This document shows positions 10,603-27,456 of a stretch of DNA of 64,000 nt, piece by piece. The notes under the pieces are model-generated. The model did no database searches and had not been told where the DNA came from. It saw nothing but the letters and a program-made list of their open reading frames with translations. Position numbers and translations under genes: made by a program. Source of the DNA: Myxococcales bacterium (GTDB taxonomy: Bacteria; Myxococcota_A; Polyangia; Polyangiales; Houyiibacteriaceae); contig JAOTXX010000001.1 of the NCBI GenBank assembly GCA_029862185.1, positions 21,486 to 85,485 on the forward strand, in the 5' to 3' direction. Position 1 is the first letter of the stretch, and each line of letters starts with the position of its first letter.

Positions 10603-11241
10603 CTATTCGCCGTTCGGGAGGTGCTTGTCAAGCTCGCGAATGAAGAGCCGCACGGCTTCGTTGGGCTGCTCGGACGCATAGACCGCCCGCCGGATGGCGA
10701 CACCGAACGCGCCCGCGCGAAGTAAGGGCGTCAAATCCTCGGGCCGCACGCCGCCCAGGGCATATGTCGGCATTTCGACACCGGCGATCGCGGCTCGAAA
10801 ACCATGAACGCCCATGGGGCGAGTCTTGCCGGGGACGTGAAAGATGGGGCTCAAGAAGGCATAGCTCGCGCGCGCTCGCTCCGCGGCTTCAAGGCCCCGG
10901 CGATCGTGACGCGAGACACCAAGGATACGAACGGAAGGCCAATGCTGGCGAATCTCGGTTGGGGGAAGGCCCAGCTCCGGCACGTGCACGCCGTCCGCCC
11001 CGATGATCTCCGCGAGATCTGTCCGTCGGTTCACCGTCAGCGCATTGCCGGTGTCCCGTGTGATCGCGCGCAACTCGTGTCCCCATTGCACGATCTGCCG
11101 ATCGGACGCCCGCTTCGCGCGAAGCTGCACACCCAACACAGCGGGCGGGCACCCTTCGAGGGCGCGTCGCACCGGCGCGACCGGACCGTCGGGGTGGTTC
11201 GGATCCGTGATGATCCAGATCCGCGGAAGGCCTTGGGTCAT
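10603..11241 (-). CDS. thiE: Thiamine-phosphate synthase
   Basis: MTQGLPRIWIITDP...GVQLRAK...GVHVPE...FLSPIFHVPGK...YALGGV matches the ThiE/TenI fold. The ATG at 11241 lies 10 nt after the thiG stop. Confidence 0.85.
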   Translation of the reverse strand: MTQGLPRIWIITDPNHPDGPVAPVRRALEGCPPAVLGVQLRAKRASDRQIVQWGHELRAITRDTGNALTVNRRTDLAEIIGADGVHVPELGLPPTEIRQHWPSVRILGVSRHDRRGLEAAERARASYAFLSPIFHVPGKTRPMGVHGFRAAIAGVEMPTYALGGVRPEDLTPLLRAGAFGVAIRRAVYASEQPNEAVRLFIRELDKHLPNGE

Positions 11242-11251
11242 CGCGACGGAC

Positions 11252-12049
<798 letters not shown>

Positions 12050-12336: not shown

Positions 12337-13206
12337 GTGAAGCGCATCGTCCATGGCGACAATTTGCAGGTACTCCAGACGCTCCCTCGCGAGCATGCGC
12401 GCCTGATCTACATCGACCCGCCCTTCAACACCGGGCGGACGCAATCTCGCCAGCGAATGAAGGTGCGCGCTGCAGCCCAAGGCAAGCGCGAAGGGTTTGG
12501 CGGCCGCCGTTACGAGGTCGAGCGGCTCGACAGCCCCGTGTACGAAGACGAGTACGACGAATACCTTTCCTTCCTGATGAGTCGAATCGAAGCGGCGCTG
12601 CCCTGCCTAACCCGCGACGGTTCGCTCTTCGTGCACCTCGACTATCGCGAAGTGCACTACGTGAAGGTCGCCCTCGATCGCCTGCTCGGCCGAGATCGTT
12701 TCCGCAACGAGATTATCTGGGCGTACGACTTTGGTGGGCGGCCGAAGCGCCGGTGGCCCGCCAAGCACGACACGCTGCTCTGGTATGTGCTCGACCCCAA
12801 GCGCTACGTCTTTCAGTTCGAAGAAATGGACCGAATTCCGTACATGGCGCCCGGGCTAGTAGGCAAAGAGAAGGCCGCAAGGGGCAAGACGCCGACGGAC
12901 GTCTGGTGGCACACGATCGTTCCGACCAATGGCAAAGAGAAGACAGGCTACCCGACGCAGAAGCCGCTGGGTGTGCTGGACCGCATCATCAAGGTGCACA
13001 CCGAGCCCGGCGACACGGTTCTGGACTTCTTTGCGGGAAGTGGGACGACCGGCGAAGCTGCAGCGCGCCTAGGCAGAGGCTTCGTGCTCGTCGACGAACA
13101 TCCTGAGGCGATCGAAATCATGCGCAGACGCCTCGCCCAATGGCAGCCGGGGATCGAGATTCACGGTGGAGATCAACGGGGCACCAGCTCGACCTCGAAG
13201 AGCTGA
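12337..13206 (+). CDS. Site-specific DNA methyltransferase, beta-class N6A/N4C (N4_N6 MTase family)
   Basis: Motif IV ([10 protein letters not shown]) precedes motif I ([14 protein letters not shown]), and YPTQKP is present. No nuclease gene is adjacent. Confidence 0.85.
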
Positions 13207-17262: not shown

Positions 17263-18129
17263 TCAGGCGTAGTTCCGCACGACGACTTCGCTCACTTTGC
17301 CGCGCTTGGTCGCATCGCAGTTGATCGCGCGGGGTGCGGCGACGGTGTCGACTTTGAACTCGCCATAGAGGTTGCGAATGAAGGGGACGTCGCTGTTGGA
17401 GAGCATCAGCTTGCAGCCTCGACGGTCGAGCGCTTTGTAAACGTCGCGCAGCCGCGTTTGATCTTCCTGGGAAAACCCACCGCGTGCGTAGGACGTGAAG
17501 CTCGCGGTCACCGACACCGGCTCGTAGGGCGGGTCGAAGTAGATGAAGTCGCCGGGCTTCGCGTTCTCGAGGAGCGTGTCGAAGGACGCGCATCGCAGAT
17601 CTGCACCCTCGAGCGCATCGCTTGCCGCCTGCAAAGCATCTTCGTTCAAGATCCGCGGGTTCTTGTACGAGCCTACTGGTACGTTGAACTCGCCTTTGCG
17701 ATTGACCCGATGCAAGCCGTTGAAGCAGGTCTTATTGAGATAGATGAACATGGCCGCGCGCTTGGACGTCGAGACACGACGGTCTTGGTTGTAGCGCTCG
17801 CGCACTTCGTAATACCGTTGTTTCGAGTGTTGACCCGCAAGCCTGCGCAGCCCGCCGATCACGCCTTCGACGTCGTCGCGAATTGCCGCGTACGTCGAAA
17901 CCAACGTGGGGTTGATGTCGGTCAGTAGAGCGCGTCTTGGACGGCGTGCAAAGAACAGCGCGCCGCCGCCGACGAATGGCTCGACATGACGCATCTGCTC
18001 GACCCCTGGGGGGAGCAGCGGTCGCAGCTGGCTGAGCAATCGGCCCTTGCCCCCGACCCACTTCACGAAGGGAGCTGCCTCCCGTGGCTCGTGCTCTATC
18101 CGCGCCGCGACCGCCGCCAATGTCGTCAT
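17263..18129 (-). CDS. Dam-family DNA adenine-N6 methyltransferase
   Basis: FVKWVGGKGRLLSQL...EPFVGGGALFF...YFDPPYEP is the alpha-class Dam/MethyltransfD12 arrangement. The ATG at 18129 has AGGTGA upstream. Confidence 0.85.
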   Translation of the reverse strand: MTTLAAVAARIEHEPREAAPFVKWVGGKGRLLSQLRPLLPPGVEQMRHVEPFVGGGALFFARRPRRALLTDINPTLVSTYAAIRDDVEGVIGGLRRLAGQHSKQRYYEVRERYNQDRRVSTSKRAAMFIYLNKTCFNGLHRVNRKGEFNVPVGSYKNPRILNEDALQAASDALEGADLRCASFDTLLENAKPGDFIYFDPPYEPVSVTASFTSYARGGFSQEDQTRLRDVYKALDRRGCKLMLSNSDVPFIRNLYGEFKVDTVAAPRAINCDATKRGKVSEVVVRNYA

Positions 18130-18222
18130 GTGTAGTATAATCACCTACACAGAGCGAAGAACGGAAAAAAGCCGCGGTTCCCGAGCAAATATCGTTCTGA
18201 TTTCCGTCCGTTAGGGCCGAAG

Positions 18223-19500
18223 CTACTTCGCCTCGGCCACCATCGTGCGGAGCCGCTCGAGCGCTTCCTCGAGCACCGACATCGGTGGCCCGAACGAGAA
18301 ACGCAGGTGCTGAACGAAACGCGAGGGCCGTCCAGTCCGGCGCTTGCCCGGATTCACGTCGAAGAAGTGGCCGGGCACCGTGATCACCTGTCGTTCGAGT
18401 GCCGCTTTGAAGAAATCGTCGCTGTTCCGAATCGAACGGGGCAGGCCGCTCAGGTCTCCCCAGGCGTAAAAGGTCCCCTGCGGCTCCAGGTCGAACTTGA
18501 CTCCGATGTCCTTGAGGCCCTGCACGAGGAAGTCGCGTTTCTTCTTGAACTCGTTGTGGACGGCCTTCGCCTCGGCGAGCGTGGGTTCCTGCTGGACCAG
18601 GTCGATCGCCGCGCGCTGCATGGGCGCAACGCCCCCGCCATCGAGGAACGAGCCTGCGCTTGCGGCGGATTCGATGACGCGCTTGGGGCCGACGATCCAA
18701 CTCACTCGAAAGCCGGGATACCGCCAGTTCTTGGTGAGCCCGTCGAACAGGACGATCGGATCCTGGTCGACGTCTTCGACATACTGTGCCGCGCTGACGA
18801 TCGATTGCTCTCCCGTCCACACGTAGTGCGAATAGAACTCGTCGAGCAGAAGTGCGCAGTTCAAGTCTCTGGCGGCCTCGACCCAGCTTGCCAGCGCATC
18901 GCCTTCGACGACTTTGCCGGTCGGGTTGCACGGGTTGCTCGCCAGGATCGCGCTGAGCCCGCGGCCCAGGATTTCCTTTTCGAGGTCTTCCCGGGTGAAC
19001 TCATATGCGTGTTTCGGGTCGAGCAAGATGGGGATCGGCAGAAATCGCCGAAACACGTCGAGCAGCTCTTCGTAGGCCGTGTAGTCCGGAAGGAAATGCC
19101 CTAGATGAATGGGCGCGATGGCTGCACATGCGCGCATGACCGCCACGCGACCGCCGCCCGCAATGCACACATTCTCAGCGGAGTATTGGGACTTCATCCC
19201 GCGGCGAAATAGCTTGTTGTATAGGCTCGCCACCGCTTCGCGAAGCTCCCAGACCCCCGGGACCGGTGCGTAGTCGAGGTCACCCGGGCGCACCTTGATC
19301 TGGGTCATCCGCTCCGGGGCGCCCGGAAGCGCGGTGGTATCCGGCTGGCCTTGACCCAGGTTGCACCAGCCGGGTGCGTCGAGGCTGAATCCACGCTTCT
19401 GTGCCTCCACGGTGACGTAAATCACGCCCGTGCGCGGGACGGGTCGAAACGCGGCGACCTCCGCAATTTCGTTCACAGCGTTGGACTTGGGCTGGCTCAT
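18223..19500 (-). CDS. PLP-dependent aminotransferase, class I/II
   Basis: 425 aa from MSQPKSNAV. It has LASNPCNPTG, DEFYSHY and a putative PLP lysine in GLTKNWRYPGFRVSW. The 775-aa track ORF extends upstream, antisense to the next gene, and was trimmed. Confidence 0.85.
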   Translation of the reverse strand: MSQPKSNAVNEIAEVAAFRPVPRTGVIYVTVEAQKRGFSLDAPGWCNLGQGQPDTTALPGAPERMTQIKVRPGDLDYAPVPGVWELREAVASLYNKLFRRGMKSQYSAENVCIAGGGRVAVMRACAAIAPIHLGHFLPDYTAYEELLDVFRRFLPIPILLDPKHAYEFTREDLEKEILGRGLSAILASNPCNPTGKVVEGDALASWVEAARDLNCALLLDEFYSHYVWTGEQSIVSAAQYVEDVDQDPIVLFDGLTKNWRYPGFRVSWIVGPKRVIESAASAGSFLDGGGVAPMQRAAIDLVQQEPTLAEAKAVHNEFKKKRDFLVQGLKDIGVKFDLEPQGTFYAWGDLSGLPRSIRNSDDFFKAALERQVITVPGHFFDVNPGKRRTGRPSRFVQHLRFSFGPPMSVLEEALERLRTMVAEAK

Positions 19501-19548
19501 GCGCTGCGGGACTCTAGCAGAAGTCTCGAAATGCGATAGCCTTGCCGC

Positions 19549-20295
19549 ATGGATGTCTTGCGCATCGAAGAGCTGATGGTCGACTGCGTGGTCGGGGTGT
19601 ATCCGCACGAGCGCAACGCCTCGCAGCCGCTTCGCGTGGACGTCGAGATGCGCCTGCAGACCGAGACCTCCGCCATCAAGGAAAGCCTGCGCTCCACGAT
19701 CGACTACGCGGCCACCGCATCGCAGCTGGTGTTCCTGCTTCGAAGCTGCCGATTCCGCCTTCTCGAAACCGCTGCGCATGTGCTCGCCAGGTACGTTCTC
19801 GCGCCCCCCGCGCCCGACGAGAGACGCGCTCAGGTCGACTCCGCCGTCATTCGGCTGAGCAAGCCCGGGGCGCTTCGAAGCTTTGCAATTCCCTCGCTGG
19901 AGATCGAGCGCAGCGCGTCTTGGTGCAAGCTCGAGGTCGAGCAAAAGCCCTTTGGCACCGTCGACGTGATCTACGAAACGAGGGGCGCCGGCATCTATCG
20001 TCTGAACGTCGCTCCCGGCCGCGGCATTCCGCTGCACGTCCATCAGCAAATGCGTGAGTCCGAGATGGTGCTTGGCGAAGGGCTGCTCTGCCAAGGGGAG
20101 CCCTGCGCGCCTGGGACGGTGCACCGCTGGCCGAGAGGCGCGGCGCACAGCTACGCGAACCCCACCGATCGCTATCAGACCATCCTCTGCGTCGATTCGC
20201 CTCGCTTCATGCCGGAGGACGAAATCGAAGTAGCTGGAGAGCCGGCCGACGTTCCGGCCGAGCCCCCCTGGGGTCCAATCGCAGGACTCGGTTGA
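19549..20295 (+). CDS. Dihydroneopterin aldolase (FolB)-like domain fused to a cupin domain
   Basis: The N-terminal ~120 aa are FolB-like (VVGVYPHER...IDYA...VIRLSKPGAL). The C-terminal half carries both cupin motifs: GRGIPLHVHQQMRESEMVLG and PRGAAHSYAN. Confidence 0.7.
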   Translation: MDVLRIEELMVDCVVGVYPHERNASQPLRVDVEMRLQTETSAIKESLRSTIDYAATASQLVFLLRSCRFRLLETAAHVLARYVLAPPAPDERRAQVDSAVIRLSKPGALRSFAIPSLEIERSASWCKLEVEQKPFGTVDVIYETRGAGIYRLNVAPGRGIPLHVHQQMRESEMVLGEGLLCQGEPCAPGTVHRWPRGAAHSYANPTDRYQTILCVDSPRFMPEDEIEVAGEPADVPAEPPWGPIAGLG

Positions 20296-20296
20296 A

Positions 20297-21070
20297 ATGA
20301 TGGTTTCGCAGGGCACGGTGGTCGTCACCGGTGCGACTCGCGGGATCGGGCGCGCGACCGTCGACGCGATTTTGGAGCGTGGAGGCAAAGTCGTGGCCAT
20401 CGCCCGCGACGAGCGGCTCCTTCGCGCGCTCCAAGAGTCGACGCCCAATCGCGTCCGCGCCCTCGCGGCCGACCTCGAACACCTCGATCGCATCTCCGAG
20501 CTGGCGAGCCGTGCGAACGATGCCTTTGGCAGCGTCGACGGCCTGGTCAACTGCGCGGGGATCGCTCGCTACGAGCCGGTGGGCGCGATCGGCCTCGACT
20601 CCGTCGAAGCGCAGCTTCGGGTCAATCTCGTTGCGCCGCTTCTCCTCTCTCAAGCGCTTGCGGTGCATATTCGTGTTCCCGGCGGCTCCATCGTCAACGT
20701 TTCGAGCACTCTGTCCGAGCGCGCAGCTCCGCACACGGTCGTGTATGCCGCGACAAAAGCTGCCCTCAACGCAGTGACCAAGGGACTGGCGCTCGAGCTC
20801 GCCCCAGCCGGCGTGCGGGTCAACGCCGTGCTCCCCGGAGGCGTGGAGACCGACATGCTTCGGGCGCCCCGTCTCCGGCCCGGTGAAACCCTCGAACCAG
20901 GCGAGATCGAGGCTCGCGTGGCGTCCCAACTGGCCGGCCTTGCTGCCCTCCACCCTCTCGGCCGGCTGGGGACGCCGCAGGAAGTGGCTGCTGTCATCAT
21001 CAGCGTCCTCGATCAAACCTGGCAGACGGGAAGCCTCGTCACCATCGATGGCGGCCTCTCGCTCGCCTAG
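20297..21070 (+). CDS. Short-chain dehydrogenase/reductase (SDR)
   Basis: TGATRGIGRA is the NAD(P) site. NCAG, a Ser (SST) and YAATKAA (YxxxK) are also present. It starts 1 nt after the FolB-cupin stop. Confidence 0.85.
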   Translation: MMVSQGTVVVTGATRGIGRATVDAILERGGKVVAIARDERLLRALQESTPNRVRALAADLEHLDRISELASRANDAFGSVDGLVNCAGIARYEPVGAIGLDSVEAQLRVNLVAPLLLSQALAVHIRVPGGSIVNVSSTLSERAAPHTVVYAATKAALNAVTKGLALELAPAGVRVNAVLPGGVETDMLRAPRLRPGETLEPGEIEARVASQLAGLAALHPLGRLGTPQEVAAVIISVLDQTWQTGSLVTIDGGLSLA

Positions 21071-21650: not shown

Positions 21651-22603
21651 TGGAGCCGTTCGCGCACCACAGCCTTCTCGATGTCGAAGGGCTCACGAGG
21701 GCGGACGTCGAGCGCATCCTCGACACCGCGGAGGCGTTCCTGCAGGTCTCCCGCCGGCCTGTCCGCAAGGTTCCAACGCTCCGCGGCAAGACCGTGATCA
21801 ACCTCTTCTACGAAGCGTCGACGAGGACCCGGACTTCTTTCGAGCTCGCGGGCAAGCGTTTGAGCGCGGATGTCATCAACATGAGCGTCTCCGCATCGAG
21901 CGTGAATAAGGGCGAGACCCTACAAGACACTTGCCGAACGCTTCAGGCGATGCATCCCGACGTGATCGTCATTCGACACGCCTCGTCGGGCGCTCCGAGC
22001 TATGTGGCCTCCAAAATCGGCTGCAGCGTCATCAACGCAGGCGACGGAATGCACGCGCATCCTACGCAGGCCCTGCTCGACGCATTTACGATCCGGCGCG
22101 CAAAGGGCACGCTCGAGAATCTCGTCGTGACGATCGTCGGAGACATCTCGCATTCGCGCGTTGCCCGATCGAACGCACATCTCCTGAAGCTATTCGGCTG
22201 CGATGTCCGGGTAGTCGGCCCTCGCACGCTGTTGCCGGCGGCCGTCGATTCCCTTGGCGTACGTGTCTTCGATCGGCTGAAGGACGGCCTCGAGGGCGCC
22301 GATGTCGTCATGGTGCTCCGCATCCAGCGTGAACGTCTCGAAGGGGCGCTCCTGCCGAGCCTTCGTGAATACGCACGCACGTTCGGCATCGGCCCGCAAA
22401 CCATTGGGCCAGCGAAGCCGGATGCAATCATCATGCATCCGGGCCCGATGAACCGCGGCGTCGAAATCGAAAGCCTCCTCGCCGACGGCGCGCGCAGCGT
22501 CGTTCTGCAGCAGGTGGAAGCCGGAGTGGCCGTGCGGATGGCTTTGCTGTATCTCCTCGCGGGTGAAGCAACCGAGCCGCCGGCGGTAGGCGAGGTTCAT
22601 TGA
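21647..22603 (+). CDS. pyrB: Aspartate carbamoyltransferase catalytic subunit
   Basis: Motifs are [17 protein letters not shown] and [11 protein letters not shown]. It overlaps the pyrR stop. Confidence 0.95.
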
Positions 22604-23775
22604 CTGGGGTTCGGACCGGCCTTGACCGCATCGCCGACGGTGACTCGGACGCGCTTCGCCTGATCGCCGGCCGCAACGTAGGTCTTCTGGCGCACGCGGC
22701 AAGCGTCGACCGAAAGCTTCGTTCCGCGTCTTGGGTCCTCCACCGGGCGGGCGCACGCGTTTCGGCGCTCTTCGGTCCTGAGCACGGGTTTGCGGGTGCA
22801 GCACAGGACATGGTCGGCGTTGGGAGCCGCGAAGAGGCGGACATGCCCGTCCATTCGTTGTACGGGGACGACGCCGAAGACTTGAGTCCGAACCCCGATT
22901 GGCTGAGGGGCTTGGATGCGATCGTCATCGATCTGCAAGACGTGGGGTCTCGCTACTACACCTACGTATGGACCGCTGCGCTCACCATGAAGGTCGCCGC
23001 CACCGTTGGCATCGAGGTCGTACTCCTCGATCGGCCCAACCCCCTCGGAGGCGTCCGCGTCGAAGGCGCCGCGCAGCGCGAAGGCTACCTCTCGTTCGTG
23101 GGCTTGTACCCGGTTGCGGTTCGGCACGGCCTCACCATCGCTGAGCTCTTGCTCTGGGTTTGCGAACGCGAGCGGATCGACCGGAGCGTGCTGCGCATCG
23201 TGCCCATGGACGGCTGGACGCGTGCGATGGAGTGGAAGGATACGGGTCTTCCTTGGGTGATGCCGTCGCCCAACATGCCGACCTTCGACACTGCGCTCGT
23301 CTATCCGGGCGGCTGCGTGGTCGAGGGGACGACGCTCTCGGAAGGGCGGGGCACGACGAGGCCGTTCGAGCTCTGGGGTGCGCCGAGCTTGGATGTCGGC
23401 CCGCTCTTGGATCTCGATCTACACGGCGCAACGCTGAGGCCCGTCGAGTTCACCCCCACGTTTCAGAAACACGCCGGACGGACCTGTACCGGGGTTCAGG
23501 TGCACGTCACCGACTCCTGGGTGTTTCGACCGTACGAGGCCTACCTGCGTATGCTTGCGGCCGCGCTCCCTCAGCGAGCTGCCGGGGGCCGTTGGCGAAC
23601 GGAAGCGTATGAATTCGTGTCGGACCGACCTGCGATCGATCTCCTCACGGGCGGTCCCGAGTTTCGCAGTGCGGTCGATCGAGGCGCATCGCTGGACGAG
23701 GTGTTGGCCGAGGAAGCGCGAGGGGCGGCGAAGTTCGATGATGAGCGGCGCGTCGCCTGGCTCTATGAGAAGTGA
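22600..23775 (+). CDS. DUF1343 family protein (NamZ-like exo-N-acetylmuramidase family)
   Basis: TGLDRIADG...[13 protein letters not shown]...FGPEHGF...[12 protein letters not shown]... is the DUF1343 layout. The TTG start overlaps the pyrB stop. Confidence 0.8.
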
Positions 23776-24713
23776 CGAAAGCCACTTCGGCCGATTTCGA
23801 TTGTGCTGCCAGACGCGTCGACAACTCTGGCCCCCGAGCCTTCGACAATTTCCCCGATCTCGGTACCCAGCGCTGCAGCCTCGGAGGAGGCCCGCGCGGT
23901 GAACAGCAGCTCGTAGTCTTCGCCGCCGCTCAGGGCCAGCACATTCGGGTCGACCGAAAGCGCGTCGCACGCCGCCCGGTAGCCAGGCGCAGTGGGGATG
24001 GCCTCTGCATGGACGACCGCGCCAACCCCCGACGCGGCGGCGAGGTGTTCCAGGTCTTGAAGACATCCATCGGAGACGTCGACCGCCGCGGTCGCAATGC
24101 GCGCGAGCACCGTCGCTGCTGAACCATTGAGCGGCGGCCGTTTCCAACGTTCTGCGAAACGTTCGGCGCCTTCGAGATCGAGCCTTCCGGCCTGCAGGAC
24201 AGCAAGCCCAAGCGCCGCCGAGCCCAGCGTCCCGGTCACGTAGATCGAATCGCCAGGCTGCGCGCCTCGCCGAGTCAGCGATTCGGAGATCGGCAACCCG
24301 AAGACGGTCGTCGTCACGGACAGCGACGGGCCTTGGCTCAAGTTCCCTCCGATGACGCGGGCCCCGGTCGTGCGCGCCGCGCCGGCAAGCCCGTCGATCA
24401 GCTCGCGGAAGTCCTCGTCGGACAAGGCCGCGGGCAGGGTGAGTGCAATGACCGAAGCGGTCGGCATCCCCGCCATCGCCCAAACGTCGCTGACGGCGGC
24501 AACCATGGCGCGGTACCCAAGCTCGCGGCAGGAGAGCAATTCGGTGCGGAAGTGGACGCCTTCAACTTGGGTGTCGACCGTGACAATGGTCGGTCGGCTG
24601 CCAAAGTCGATCACCGCGGCGTCGTCGCCGATGCCGACCAGAACCTTCTCCGATTCGCCGTCGAGCGCAAAACGGGTCTTCAGCCATTCGATCTTGGCGA
24701 ACTCATCACGCAT
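23763..24713 (-). CDS. thiL: Thiamine-monophosphate kinase
   Basis: GIGDDAAVI...DTQVEGVHF...GGNLS...DVSDG is the AIR-synthase-related ThiL pattern. The start overlaps the stop of the histidine kinase gene by 8 nt. Confidence 0.9.
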   Translation of the reverse strand: MRDEFAKIEWLKTRFALDGESEKVLVGIGDDAAVIDFGSRPTIVTVDTQVEGVHFRTELLSCRELGYRAMVAAVSDVWAMAGMPTASVIALTLPAALSDEDFRELIDGLAGAARTTGARVIGGNLSQGPSLSVTTTVFGLPISESLTRRGAQPGDSIYVTGTLGSAALGLAVLQAGRLDLEGAERFAERWKRPPLNGSAATVLARIATAAVDVSDGCLQDLEHLAAASGVGAVVHAEAIPTAPGYRAACDALSVDPNVLALSGGEDYELLFTARASSEAAALGTEIGEIVEGSGARVVDASGSTIEIGRSGFRHFS

Positions 24714-26112
24714 CTTCGTCGGCGGCGGGGAGCGTCACACTGAAGATTGTGCCCTCGCCGAGCGTGCTGGTCACTTCGATCTTGCCCCCGTGGCCGTCGA
24801 CCAGCTGTTTGACGATCGAAAGCCCCAGGCCCGCGCCGCCGTGAACGCGCGTGGTCCCGGCGTCGACCTGATAAAACGCGTCGAAAATCTTGGAAAGGTT
24901 GTGTTCCGCGATGCCCATGCCGCCGTCTTGCACGGTCAACAGCACCGCGGGCCGGCTTGCCGTGAAAAGCGCAGCGCCCAGGCCCGACGCGCCTGCGGCG
25001 TCGATTTCGCCCTGCTCGGCTCGGATGGTCACCATTCCGCCCTCGTCGCTGAACTTGACTGCGTTGTCGGCGAGATTGAGCAGAATCTGACTCAGGCGAA
25101 CCGGGTCTCCCCACAGCTTCGGTGTCTCGTCGCCGATTTGGATGTCGAGCGAAACGTTTCGCCGATTGGCGGTCGGGACAATCGTCGCAGCCAGGTCGGA
25201 CAAGAGGGCGTGCGGGTCGATCGGCTCGTGCTTGAGGTCCAAGCTCTTGGCCTCGAGCCGGCCGAGGTCGAGCAGGCTGCTGATCAAGCCGAGCAACTGA
25301 TCGGCCTTGTTTCGAATCGTCCCCAGGAACTCTGCCTGGCCATTACTGAGTGCGCCTGCAGCGCCGCTTTCGAGCATTTCGGTGTAGCCGATGATCGACG
25401 TGAGCGGGCTCCGAAGCTCGTGACTCACGGTCGCCAAGAACGTGCTCTTGAGTTGATCGAGCTTCTTCAGCTCTTCGAACGAGGACTTGAGCGCCTCGTT
25501 CTTTTCAGCAAGCTCGCGATAATTCTCCCGGACGCTGGCAACCTGCATCGTCGATGCGAGCTGCGCGCGGTGGCCCGAAAACAGCAGCAGCTCGAGCACG
25601 CCCTTTAGGTGGGCCGAGATCTCCTCGGCGACGTGCTCGCGTACGCGCGGCATCGTATCGAAGTGCGCGCACGCGGTGGCCGCATCGATTGACTCGTCGA
25701 TCGACAGGAGTGATTCGGGTGGTTGCGTAGTCTCCGCTGGCACGTACGGTCCAACTATGAATCGTCCGATTGGACGGCCCTGGTATTCGAGGGGCACGAT
25801 TCGGTACACCGCGCCCGTGAAACAGGGATGCACGATGGTTTGCACATCGTGCTCCAAGTCTCGTACGACGCCTACGGTCCTGGCGCATTCGCGTTCGCCG
25901 TTGCCGAGCGTATTGAGGTAGTTGCACAGGGGTTGGTCGCGATGGACGTCGGCGAGGAGGTCTCCCTCGTGAGAGATGACGCGCACCGGAAGCCCGAAGA
26001 GGCCAAAGAACGACTTGCACACGGATGTCACCGAATCACGGCTCAGCACGTCTTCGAGGCGAACCACGTCCCCCATCATGATGTCGGCAGCGTTTGTCTG
26101 GTCCAGCGTCAT
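24706..26112 (-). CDS. Cytoplasmic sensor histidine kinase with an N-terminal PocR-like sensory domain
   Basis: There is no TM segment. The N-terminal ~170 aa look PocR-like, with conserved Cys (CNYL...ECART...HPCF). An H-box follows (FLATVSHELRSPLTSIIGY), then the HATPase N/G boxes (LLNLADNAVKF, DGGMGI, GGAGLGLSIV). No response regulator is adjacent. Confidence 0.85.
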   Translation of the reverse strand: MTLDQTNAADIMMGDVVRLEDVLSRDSVTSVCKSFFGLFGLPVRVISHEGDLLADVHRDQPLCNYLNTLGNGERECARTVGVVRDLEHDVQTIVHPCFTGAVYRIVPLEYQGRPIGRFIVGPYVPAETTQPPESLLSIDESIDAATACAHFDTMPRVREHVAEEISAHLKGVLELLLFSGHRAQLASTMQVASVRENYRELAEKNEALKSSFEELKKLDQLKSTFLATVSHELRSPLTSIIGYTEMLESGAAGALSNGQAEFLGTIRNKADQLLGLISSLLDLGRLEAKSLDLKHEPIDPHALLSDLAATIVPTANRRNVSLDIQIGDETPKLWGDPVRLSQILLNLADNAVKFSDEGGMVTIRAEQGEIDAAGASGLGAALFTASRPAVLLTVQDGGMGIAEHNLSKIFDAFYQVDAGTTRVHGGAGLGLSIVKQLVDGHGGKIEVTSTLGEGTIFSVTLPAADEDA

Positions 26113-26807
26113 CGCCCCCGTGGCCCCGGATCGTGTTTCAGTTTTGCTTCCACCTCGGTCATGAAGTGGATCGGGCTGATCCCGAACTTCTCTTCGAGCT
26201 CGTGATCTTCCTCGAGCTTCGTCCAGGTGTCTCGAATCAACCCGCGGAGGGTTTGCATCACGCCGTAGCCGCGGGTCGCGACTGCCTTGTAGATTGGCTC
26301 TCTGCTTCGCTGCGCGATCAGCTCGAGCTCTTCGTCGGTACGAATACTGGCCATATCACGTTTGTTGAACTGAATGATGATTGGGATCCGCTCTGGATCG
26401 ATCGCGTTCTCTTCGAGGTTGCACTTCAGGTTCAGAAATGACTCCCTGTTTGCGTCGGCCTCGCTTCGCTGCGAGTCCGCGATGAAAGCCACGCCGTCGG
26501 TACCCTGCAAGACGAGTCGCCGGGTTGCGTTGTGCATCACTTGTCCCGGAACGGTAAACAGCTTCAGCCGGACCTTGAGCCCGCTTCCGGAGCTCACCGT
26601 GATCGGCAGCATGTCGAAGAACAGCGTTCGGTCGTTTTTCGTTTCGAGCGTCATGAGATCGCCGCAGGCATTCGACGTTCCGAGCCAGTGAATCGCGCGC
26701 AAGTTGCTCGTCTTGCCACTGAGCGCCGGCCCGTAGTACACCAGCTTCACGGTCAGTTCTTTCGCGGCGAAGTCGATTTGCATTTCGAACCGCGGGTCGC
26801 CCGCCAC
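26109..26807 (-). CDS. MglA-family small GTPase paralog with a C-terminal extension
   Basis: KLVYYGPALSGKTSNL (P-loop), NDRTLFFDMLP, FTVPGQV and QFNKRDM align with M. xanthus MglA (IVYYGPGLCGKTTNL, TDRTLFFDFLP, TVPGQ, NKRD). There are ~40 extra C-terminal residues. The stop overlaps the kinase start (ATGA). Confidence 0.85.
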   Translation of the reverse strand: MAGDPRFEMQIDFAAKELTVKLVYYGPALSGKTSNLRAIHWLGTSNACGDLMTLETKNDRTLFFDMLPITVSSGSGLKVRLKLFTVPGQVMHNATRRLVLQGTDGVAFIADSQRSEADANRESFLNLKCNLEENAIDPERIPIIIQFNKRDMASIRTDEELELIAQRSREPIYKAVATRGYGVMQTLRGLIRDTWTKLEEDHELEEKFGISPIHFMTEVEAKLKHDPGPRGR

Positions 26808-26811
26808 GGAT

Positions 26812-27156
26812 CTACGTCCGCAACAAGAGCCAAATCCCCGCCCCCATCAACATCAACATGATAAAGAACGCGACCCATGTCAGCGTCCTTTTGTGCTCAT
26901 GCCCAGCGGGGATGACCCGGGTATCCTGCAATTGCTGGGACGCCAGTGCGATCAAGCCGTCGATTTGCTTTGCGGCGTCTTCGCGGCGGGCAGGATCCGT
27001 GTCGCGGACTGCGCGATAGCGTTTTCCCGCGTCCGGGAGCCGATCCAAGGCTACGCAAACGCCCACGAAGCGGCGATGCGCGTCGTGATTCCCCCAATCG
27101 GCCTCGACCCGTTCCCACGCTTCGTCGATTGGATCCACGAGAGCGAAGAATAGCAC
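26812..27156 (-). CDS. Hypothetical C-terminally membrane-anchored protein
   Basis: 114 aa with a soluble helical N-terminal part and a single C-terminal TM helix (LTWVAFFIMLMLMGAGIWLLL). It ends 4 nt before the GTPase start. The GTG start is uncertain. Confidence 0.45.
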   Translation of the reverse strand: MLFFALVDPIDEAWERVEADWGNHDAHRRFVGVCVALDRLPDAGKRYRAVRDTDPARREDAAKQIDGLIALASQQLQDTRVIPAGHEHKRTLTWVAFFIMLMLMGAGIWLLLRT

Positions 27157-27360
27157 GACGCTGTCTGGACAATATAGACATTTATACGTTGGAATAATGC
27201 CAATTTTGTCCCGACGCCTTGGCTCAGGAACACCGCGTTGGGCGACGCACGTTCTGCAGAATAGGGGCGGGCGTTCCCACCATCGCTCCGGCCTCGAATT
27301 TCAGACCTACATCGGCCCAAAAAACCGTTTTAATTCTGCCACTTGGGCCGCCGAAAGAAG

Positions 27361-27390
27361 TTGACAGCAGAGCGGCCTGGGCCTTAGTTT
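27361..27390 (+). promoter_or_regulatory. Candidate sigma70-type promoter of the dcw cluster
   Basis: TTGACA lies at 27361-27366, with TAGTTT 18 nt downstream (27385-27390). It sits in a 300-bp lower-GC intergenic region, ~70 nt upstream of mraZ. Confidence 0.35.
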
Positions 27391-27398
27391 CCGGCCTT

Positions 27399-27428
27399 AG
27401 TGGGAAGCAGTGGGATCAAGTGCCAAAT
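27399..27428 (+). promoter_or_regulatory. MraZ-box-like direct repeats (aGTGGG / aGTGGG / aGTGCC) with 10-bp periodicity
   Basis: The sequence reads agtgggaagc agtgggatca agtgccaaat. GTGGG occurs at 27400 and 27410, and GTGCC at 27420, just downstream of the candidate -10 and upstream of mraZ. Confidence 0.5.
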
Positions 27429-27456
27429 GGCCGGTAACTAGGACGAGAGGGTTAGG

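Follow-up and report, generated by a model that had tools for sequence, protein, structure and literature searches.

A small GTPase of the MglA family and a histidine kinase with a PocR sensor domain, encoded by adjacent genes in a bacterial chromosome of the Polyangiales, form a gene pair that is conserved across Myxococcota. The pair lies on the minus strand of a 64-kb (64,000 nt) stretch of contig JAOTXX010000001.1, hereafter the window, to which coordinates refer unless another locus is named. The most probable explanation, which we favour with some reserve, is that this is the form which the sofG locus of myxobacteria takes in Polyangiales, where an orphan Group-1 MglA GTPase shares an operon with a dedicated, translationally coupled cytoplasmic PocR kinase and acts with it as one signalling unit. 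The GTPase family itself is known; what is new is most likely the conserved pairing of a SofG-type GTPase with a PocR kinase.

Conservation and properties of the GTPase-kinase pair

Loci that encode a relative of the GTPase were fetched, 80 in all, by scanning a single genome for each GTDB species. The PocR kinase gene lies directly downstream of the GTPase gene and on the same strand in all 80, with identities as low as 54% for the GTPase and 34% for the kinase. The GTPase stop codon overlaps the kinase start codon (as ATGA, GTGA or TGATG) in 70 of them, and the other ten have a gap of <=25 nucleotides (nt). A representative search and two profile searches provided further members, for which eight additional contexts were read (L081/82, L084, L085/86, the P0281 contig, L088/89, L090, L091 and L092/93). 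The GTPase is followed by a PocR-HisKA-HATPase_c protein in every one of these contexts, among unrelated flanking genes, and the distant members carry the same subfamily signature as the window GTPase. Because the pair stays adjacent in every context while the flanking genes change, it is the conserved unit, and the upstream gene for a 114-amino-acid (aa) protein, the downstream thiL and the divergent mraZ lie outside it. A preliminary description of the window had proposed a conserved triad that includes the 114-aa protein; two of its three members bear this out, and the third is limited to one group of lineages. The distances of the GTPase and kinase are correlated (mirror-tree analysis, partial r 0.63), but so are those of the kinase and ThiL (0.64); this correlation is not counted as evidence because it is high without being specific to the pair.

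Group-1 MglA proteins are defined by an Arg adjoining the switch I (G2) Thr, which serves as an intrinsic Arg finger, by TVPGQ, in which Thr replaces Asp and Gln is catalytic, and by NKxD (Wuichet and Sogaard-Andersen 2014). The window GTPase is assigned to this group as an orphan member because all three features can be read from its sequence; R52-T53 of DRTLFFD, TVPGQ and NKRD are invariant in 43 aligned family members. A phmmer comparison with PDB aligned residues 11-200 to MglA of Myxococcus xanthus (E 1.5e-49) and Thermus thermophilus (E 3e-46), which contradicts the automatic JGI name of SRP receptor beta, and Pfam contained no match. Identity to MglA is ~43-48%, compared with 45-65% to other members of its own subfamily. 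Two marks set the subfamily apart. The first is an Ala in the P-loop (Ala20) where MglA has Gly21, which is the Ras G12 position; it occurs in 78 of the 80 loci. The second is a C-terminal motif, L..H.L..KFG....F. Since the MglA substitution G21V lowers kcat sevenfold and the Ala is family-wide, the Ala suggests that GTP hydrolysis may be slow or differently stimulated. A C-terminal extension of ~30 aa (224 aa, compared with 195 for MglA) is modelled by AlphaFold2 (AF2) as two extra short helices after the last helix of the G domain (mean predicted local distance difference test score, pLDDT, 83.9).

Roadblock (Robl_LC7) domains were found neither among ~45 window genes supported by their GC content at third codon positions (GC3) nor in the gene tables of related loci, and the genes within four positions of the GTPase encode the 114-aa protein, the kinase, ThiL, NamZ and MraZ, with no mglB. 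The protein therefore shares its G-domain family, intrinsic Arg, TVPGQ with catalytic Gln and NKRD with the MglA/MglB systems of M. xanthus and T. thermophilus, but differs from them in its P-loop Ala, its extension, its obligatory kinase neighbour and the absence of mglB from its operon and the scanned genes; length, extension and missing mglB argue against a canonical MglA, and that reading was rejected. The preliminary description had credited the GTPase with every MglA hallmark, a ~40-aa extension and no MglB partner, of which the P-loop and the length of the extension needed correction.

The kinase is a soluble, cytoplasmic protein. Its H-box His and its N, G1, F and G2 boxes are conserved in 79 orthologues, so that it is predicted to be a catalytically competent HisKA/HATPase_c kinase. 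No receiver-like sequence occurs anywhere in the window, and thus no cognate response regulator stands beside the kinase there, as had been described. A Cys-cluster metal site in the PocR domain was considered and rejected, because the cysteines are not conserved in Polyangiaceae-like orthologues.

The layout of the module agrees with the preliminary description in most respects. Open reading frames (ORFs) and Pfam/NCBIfam matches identify four minus-strand genes, including thiL, that diverge from mraZ; the kinase ATG overlaps the GTPase stop codon as ATGA, and the thiL start overlaps the kinase stop by 8 nt (ATGCGTGA). A 4-nt gap had been described between the 114-aa gene and the GTPase gene, where the GTPase start has to be moved. 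GTPase orthologues begin MQ(I/V/L)DF, and in three of them an in-frame stop codon precedes this point by 1-2 codons; translation therefore almost certainly begins with the ATG at 26783, which makes the protein 224 aa long and widens the gap to 28 nt.

Relation to SofG and other MglA-family systems

Each cultured myxobacterium in the survey of Wuichet and Sogaard-Andersen has one MglB-coupled MglA (195-196 aa) and a single orphan (220-242 aa). The orphans include SofG of M. xanthus (MXAN_6703, stated as 239 aa) and the proteins of M. fulvus (239), Corallococcus (241), Stigmatella (237), Anaeromyxobacter (230), Haliangium (Hoch_2556, 220) and Sorangium (sce0386, 242); that survey left them aside and made no analysis of their neighbourhoods. 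The 224-aa GTPase from the Polyangiales metagenome-assembled genome (MAG) falls within the SofG-type range of ~220-242 aa for an orphan Group-1 MglA. Transcriptome supplements place MXAN_6702, a 'histidine kinase' of 502 aa, at 8243090-8244598 on the reverse strand and the GNAT gene MXAN_6704 at 8245603-8246139 on the + strand of the M. xanthus genome, and sofG is listed on the reverse strand ('<MglA'). From these coordinates and strands, sofG fills the 1-kb space directly upstream of the co-oriented MXAN_6702, which is the gene order of the window. Sorangium-like loci in our set likewise have 241-242-aa GTPases followed by a PocR kinase.

Synteny, protein length and the finding that each surveyed cultured myxobacterium has a single orphan in addition to its canonical mglBA pair make the window GTPase very probably the orthologue of SofG. 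The preliminary description had named SofG only for comparison and had spoken of an uncharacterised link from GTPase to phosphorelay; the M. xanthus sofG-kinase gene order makes the GTPase most likely SofG itself in orthologous form, not an uncharacterised kind. Both loci have an extended orphan GTPase and a co-oriented kinase gene for a protein of ~500 aa directly downstream; they differ on the other side, where the window has the gene for the tail-anchored 114-aa protein and the divergent mraZ, whereas M. xanthus has the GNAT gene and PilT paralogues.

In the accessible parts of the SofG literature, SofG of M. xanthus acts together with the bactofilin BacP in positioning the ATPases PilB and PilT at the cell pole. 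Papers disagree on whether MglB is a GTPase-activating protein (GAP) for SofG, and reviews describe the cue for its one-sided subpolar localisation as unknown. Accessible literature on PocR in connection with MglA or Myxococcus, and on MXAN_6702, contains no description of the kinase or of the pairing.

Small Ras-like GTPases encoded with a signalling output protein, which can be a histidine kinase, have also been described for Group 1 Rup GTPases (Wuichet and Sogaard-Andersen 2014). These differ from the pair described here because they lack the catalytic Gln, occur with coiled-coil and OmpA-domain membrane proteins, and do not belong to the MglA family. Fusions are a further variation: most of the best 150 representatives (P0133-P0270) are 300-700 aa long and begin with an MglA-like G domain that is followed by a long C-terminal region. 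Such MglA-fusion proteins, of which sce2413 (433 aa) and GSU1930 (291 aa) are examples in the Wuichet table, are apparently a large and little-studied class.

A proposed signalling unit and its alternatives

If the pair acts as one signalling unit, the GTPase and kinase would be made in a fixed ratio. The GTPase would cycle between GTP and GDP by means of its own Arg52 and Gln81, with Ala20 favouring slow or differently stimulated hydrolysis. A cytoplasmic cue would be sensed through PocR, and the kinase would then control which nucleotide the GTPase carries or where it localises, or else the GTP-bound GTPase would gate the kinase. The kinase may phosphorylate a stand-alone CheY-like receiver encoded elsewhere in the genome, such as those directly downstream in two other lineages. 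The output would bear on cell polarity and on circuits of type IV pili or chemosensing, in keeping with SofG in M. xanthus, and not on division. Within the window clade, a tether or modulator of the GTPase at the inner membrane would probably be supplied by the tail-anchored protein with its TPR-like domain.

Genes near the pair in other lineages give some indication of its output. A single-domain receiver gene directly follows the kinase gene in two distant lineages (L075 and L079), in each case with a gene for a methyl-accepting chemotaxis protein (MCP) after it, and in a third (L091) the pair and thiL are followed by an MCP-CheW-CheY-CheA set; these three distant lineages provide the only clue to the phosphorylation partner of the kinase. 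PilT- or PilB-like ATPase genes occur near the pair in L085 and L090, and MXAN_6705/6706 near sofG in M. xanthus are PilT paralogues. These receiver, MCP and pilus associations are anecdotal, and they fit a SofG role in PilB/PilT placement better than a role in division.

HmpF is a pilus-polarity protein of cyanobacteria. A gene for a protein of 269-279 aa precedes the GTPase gene on the same strand in one clade (L088, 7053-7892; L081, 5072-5881), and precomputed annotation gives its product a weak HmpF match that was not reproduced by hmmscan at E <= 0.01.

More tentatively, and with less confidence than in the signalling unit as such, we suggest that SofG-type GTPases across Myxococcota could have in the PocR kinase the dedicated regulator or effector that they have so far lacked. 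This would be a direct couple of G protein and histidine kinase, in which a PocR cue sets the GTPase state or the GTP-bound GTPase drives a CheY-like output. Only two orphan MglA paralogues have been characterised, of which SofG is one; a kinase gene that is translationally coupled to the GTPase gene in all lineages examined is an obvious candidate for control of its nucleotide cycle and localisation, and has apparently not been studied. If the dedicated-kinase proposal is correct, it would connect the control of polarity and of type IV pili with a phosphorelay, no roadblock GAP being involved, and would add to the actinobacterial conservons a second independent case in which a Ras-like GTPase of bacteria is linked to a histidine kinase, in a minimal two-gene design.

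Several points weigh against a SofG-type signalling unit. An interaction between GTPase and kinase, in either signalling direction, is a prediction from gene order. Orthology with SofG was argued from synteny, length and the one orphan per genome; the homologue searches yielded no named Myxococcus protein, and the best 120 profile-search matches are all MAG or metagenome proteins. The SofG work, in the parts cited here, involves BacP, PilB/PilT and possibly MglB as a GAP, and no kinase. Bactofilin, pilus and receiver genes are all absent from the window, and the mirror-tree correlation is shared with ThiL.

The strongest alternative is an inherited operon in which the GTPase acts alone, in the manner of SofG with bactofilin and pilus ATPases, while the kinase and thiL genes are co-transcribed by descent. 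Such an operon would explain why thiL, which has no obvious functional link to the pair, is also kept in 65 of the 80 loci and in distant lineages; the unspecific mirror-tree signal and the silence of the accessible SofG literature on a kinase role are in keeping with it. We consider it unlikely, because the pair survives every rearrangement in which thiL, mraZ or the 114-aa gene is lost, inverted or replaced, retains its stop/start overlap in 70 of the 80 loci, and spans GTPase identities down to ~45%.

A conservon-like system is slightly less likely still. The kinase would then be a sensor and an exchange factor or GAP, and the GTPase would be the output in place of a response regulator, as proposed for CvnA and CvnD. 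Conservons (CvnA kinase, CvnB roadblock, CvnC DUF742, CvnD GTPase) set a precedent for operons in which a histidine kinase occurs together with an MglA-family GTPase and a response regulator is usually missing, and the window and most of the loci have no receiver. Several differences speak against this reading. No roadblock or DUF742 match was found at the locus with Pfam, so the four-gene set is incomplete. CvnD is a Group 2 GTPase (without intrinsic Arg, and with GTPGQ and NxFD), whereas the GTPase here is Group 1 (intrinsic Arg, TVPGQ, NKRD). Conservons require the roadblock and DUF742 proteins, and their kinase is a membrane protein with HAMP domain and LPxR tail, whereas the pair in Myxococcota has two core genes and a soluble PocR kinase with intact H-box and ATP-binding boxes, and the CheY-like receiver after the kinase in L075 and L079 argues for normal phosphotransfer.

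A division or polarity module run from the dcw/mraZ promoter region, as the preliminary description had suggested, is highly improbable: divergence from mraZ, across a shared 300-bp region with probable MraZ boxes, is kept in the window clade and Sandaracinaceae-like genomes, but all other pair-bearing lineages (L064-L093) lack the mraZ adjacency, M. xanthus sofG is flanked by the GNAT and kinase genes, and the boxes adjoin mraZ, ~245 nt from the 114-aa gene start, so the clade-limited neighbourhood of 114-aa gene and mraZ leaves the dcw link unsupported and its adjacency a lineage-specific accident of gene order.

Flanking genes and other features of the window

Features of the module, with receiver and chemosensory genes near the pair in three other loci (positions in those loci).
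Feature	Sequence	Position	Strand	Remark
114-aa tail-anchored protein gene	window	26812-27156	-	no family match
Four-helix TPR-like cytoplasmic domain	window	26920-27132	-	114-aa protein, AF2 model
Basic HKR patch and C-terminal transmembrane helix	window	26821-26883	-	114-aa protein
GTPase, longest ORF	window	26109-26807	-	232 aa from GTG at 26807
GTPase, favoured start	window	26109-26783	-	224 aa from conserved ATG
P-loop GPALSGKT	window	26709-26732	-	GTPase motif
Switch I DRTLFFD with intrinsic Arg	window	26613-26633	-	GTPase motif
TVPGQ	window	26541-26555	-	GTPase motif, residues 77-81
NKRD	window	26355-26366	-	GTPase motif, residues 140-143
Conserved C-terminal extension	window	26112-26213	-	GTPase
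PocR histidine kinase gene	window	24706-26112	-	468 aa; Pfam PocR, HisKA and HATPase_c
PocR sensor	window	25573-26052	-	Pfam 5e-14
HisKA	window	25249-25449	-	Pfam 5e-20
H-box SHELRSPL	window	25402-25425	-	within HisKA of the kinase
HATPase_c with N, G1, F and G2 boxes	window	24721-25110	-	Pfam 5e-26
thiL (thiamine-monophosphate kinase)	window	23763-24713	-	316 aa; NCBIfam TIGR01379, Pfam AIRS/AIRS_C
Intergenic region between 114-aa gene and divergent mraZ	window	27157-27456	.	300 bp
Direct repeats GTGGG-N5-GTGGG-N5-GTGCC	window	27400-27424	+	GTGGGAAGCAGTGGGATCAAGTGCC; 10-nt spacing; 57, 47 and 37 nt upstream of mraZ start (27457)
Receiver and MCP genes	L075	8162-8527 and 9562-10818		single-domain receiver, then MCP, after kinase
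Receiver and MCP genes	L079	8172-8555 and 8586-9728		single-domain receiver, then MCP, after kinase
Chemosensory genes	L091	11142-15347		pair, then thiL, MCP-CheW-CheY-CheA

The 114-aa protein has no sequence match in Pfam, NCBIfam or PDB. A hydrophobic stretch at residues 92-112, after HKR, is kept in 60 orthologues, and its N-terminal domain is conserved as AW..VE..W...H..F ... RL..AG.RYR. The AF2 single-sequence model (pLDDT 76) has helices at residues 9-19, 24-36, 40-53, 55-79 and 87-113, and its fold matches in PDB are weak (E >= 0.19) and all TPR-like. A single transmembrane helix at the extreme C-terminus, a cytoplasmic N-terminal domain and the lack of a signal peptide agree with the earlier description of a tail-anchored protein, with the topology deduced from the positive-inside rule; that it tethers the GTPase to the membrane or serves it as adaptor is a reasonable guess at most. 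Its gene and mraZ occur together in all 61 of the L001-L063 loci in which the upstream flank was recovered, a distribution that covers the window clade and its Sandaracinaceae-like relatives only, and the 114-aa gene is absent from L064-L091 even when sought with a profile hidden Markov model.

Pfam identifies the MraZ domain in the product of the divergent neighbour. The three direct repeats upstream of mraZ, which are probable MraZ operator boxes, are found at the same offsets across the window clade, with GTGGT and GTGGC variants in Sandaracinaceae-like loci. No sigma-70 promoter was found in a scan, terminator-like sites were no more frequent than expected by chance, and Rfam gave no match between 20 and 30 kb of the window.

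ThiL scores 255 bits against TIGR01379, for which the cut-off is 184 (NCBIfam). Its gene often, though not always, lies downstream of the pair: among the 80 loci it follows the kinase on the same strand in 65, is inverted in 5 and was undetected in 6; it is missing in several other lineages and is retained in the distant L085, L091 and L092, often with a stop/start overlap. The thiamine genes thiE and thiG lie 12 kb from thiL in the window (10603-12049), and nothing was found to explain why thiL travels with the pair. The gene namZ (exo-beta-N-acetylmuramidase; 22600-23775, + strand) converges on thiL, so that the coding 3' ends overlap by 13 nt with no terminator-like site between them.

The window is otherwise an ordinary chromosomal region of a Polyangiales/Myxococcales MAG with ~63% GC. 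The genes smc, purL/purQ, thiE/thiG, alr, mlaE/F, pyrR, pyrB and namZ lie to the left of the module, and the dcw cluster (mraZ, rsmH, ftsL, ftsI ... ftsA, ftsZ) lies to the right. Two DNA methyltransferase genes of the N6_N4_Mtase and Dam-like D12 classes (12337-13206, + strand; 17263-18144, - strand) stand among housekeeping genes, and no restriction endonuclease was noticed near them. A 775-aa ORF at 18223-20550 (- strand) has an aminotransferase match at residues 395-767 only; the N-terminal half, for which there is no match, lies across an SDR-like ORF of the opposite strand (20297-21070), and the start of the 775-aa ORF was probably over-called.

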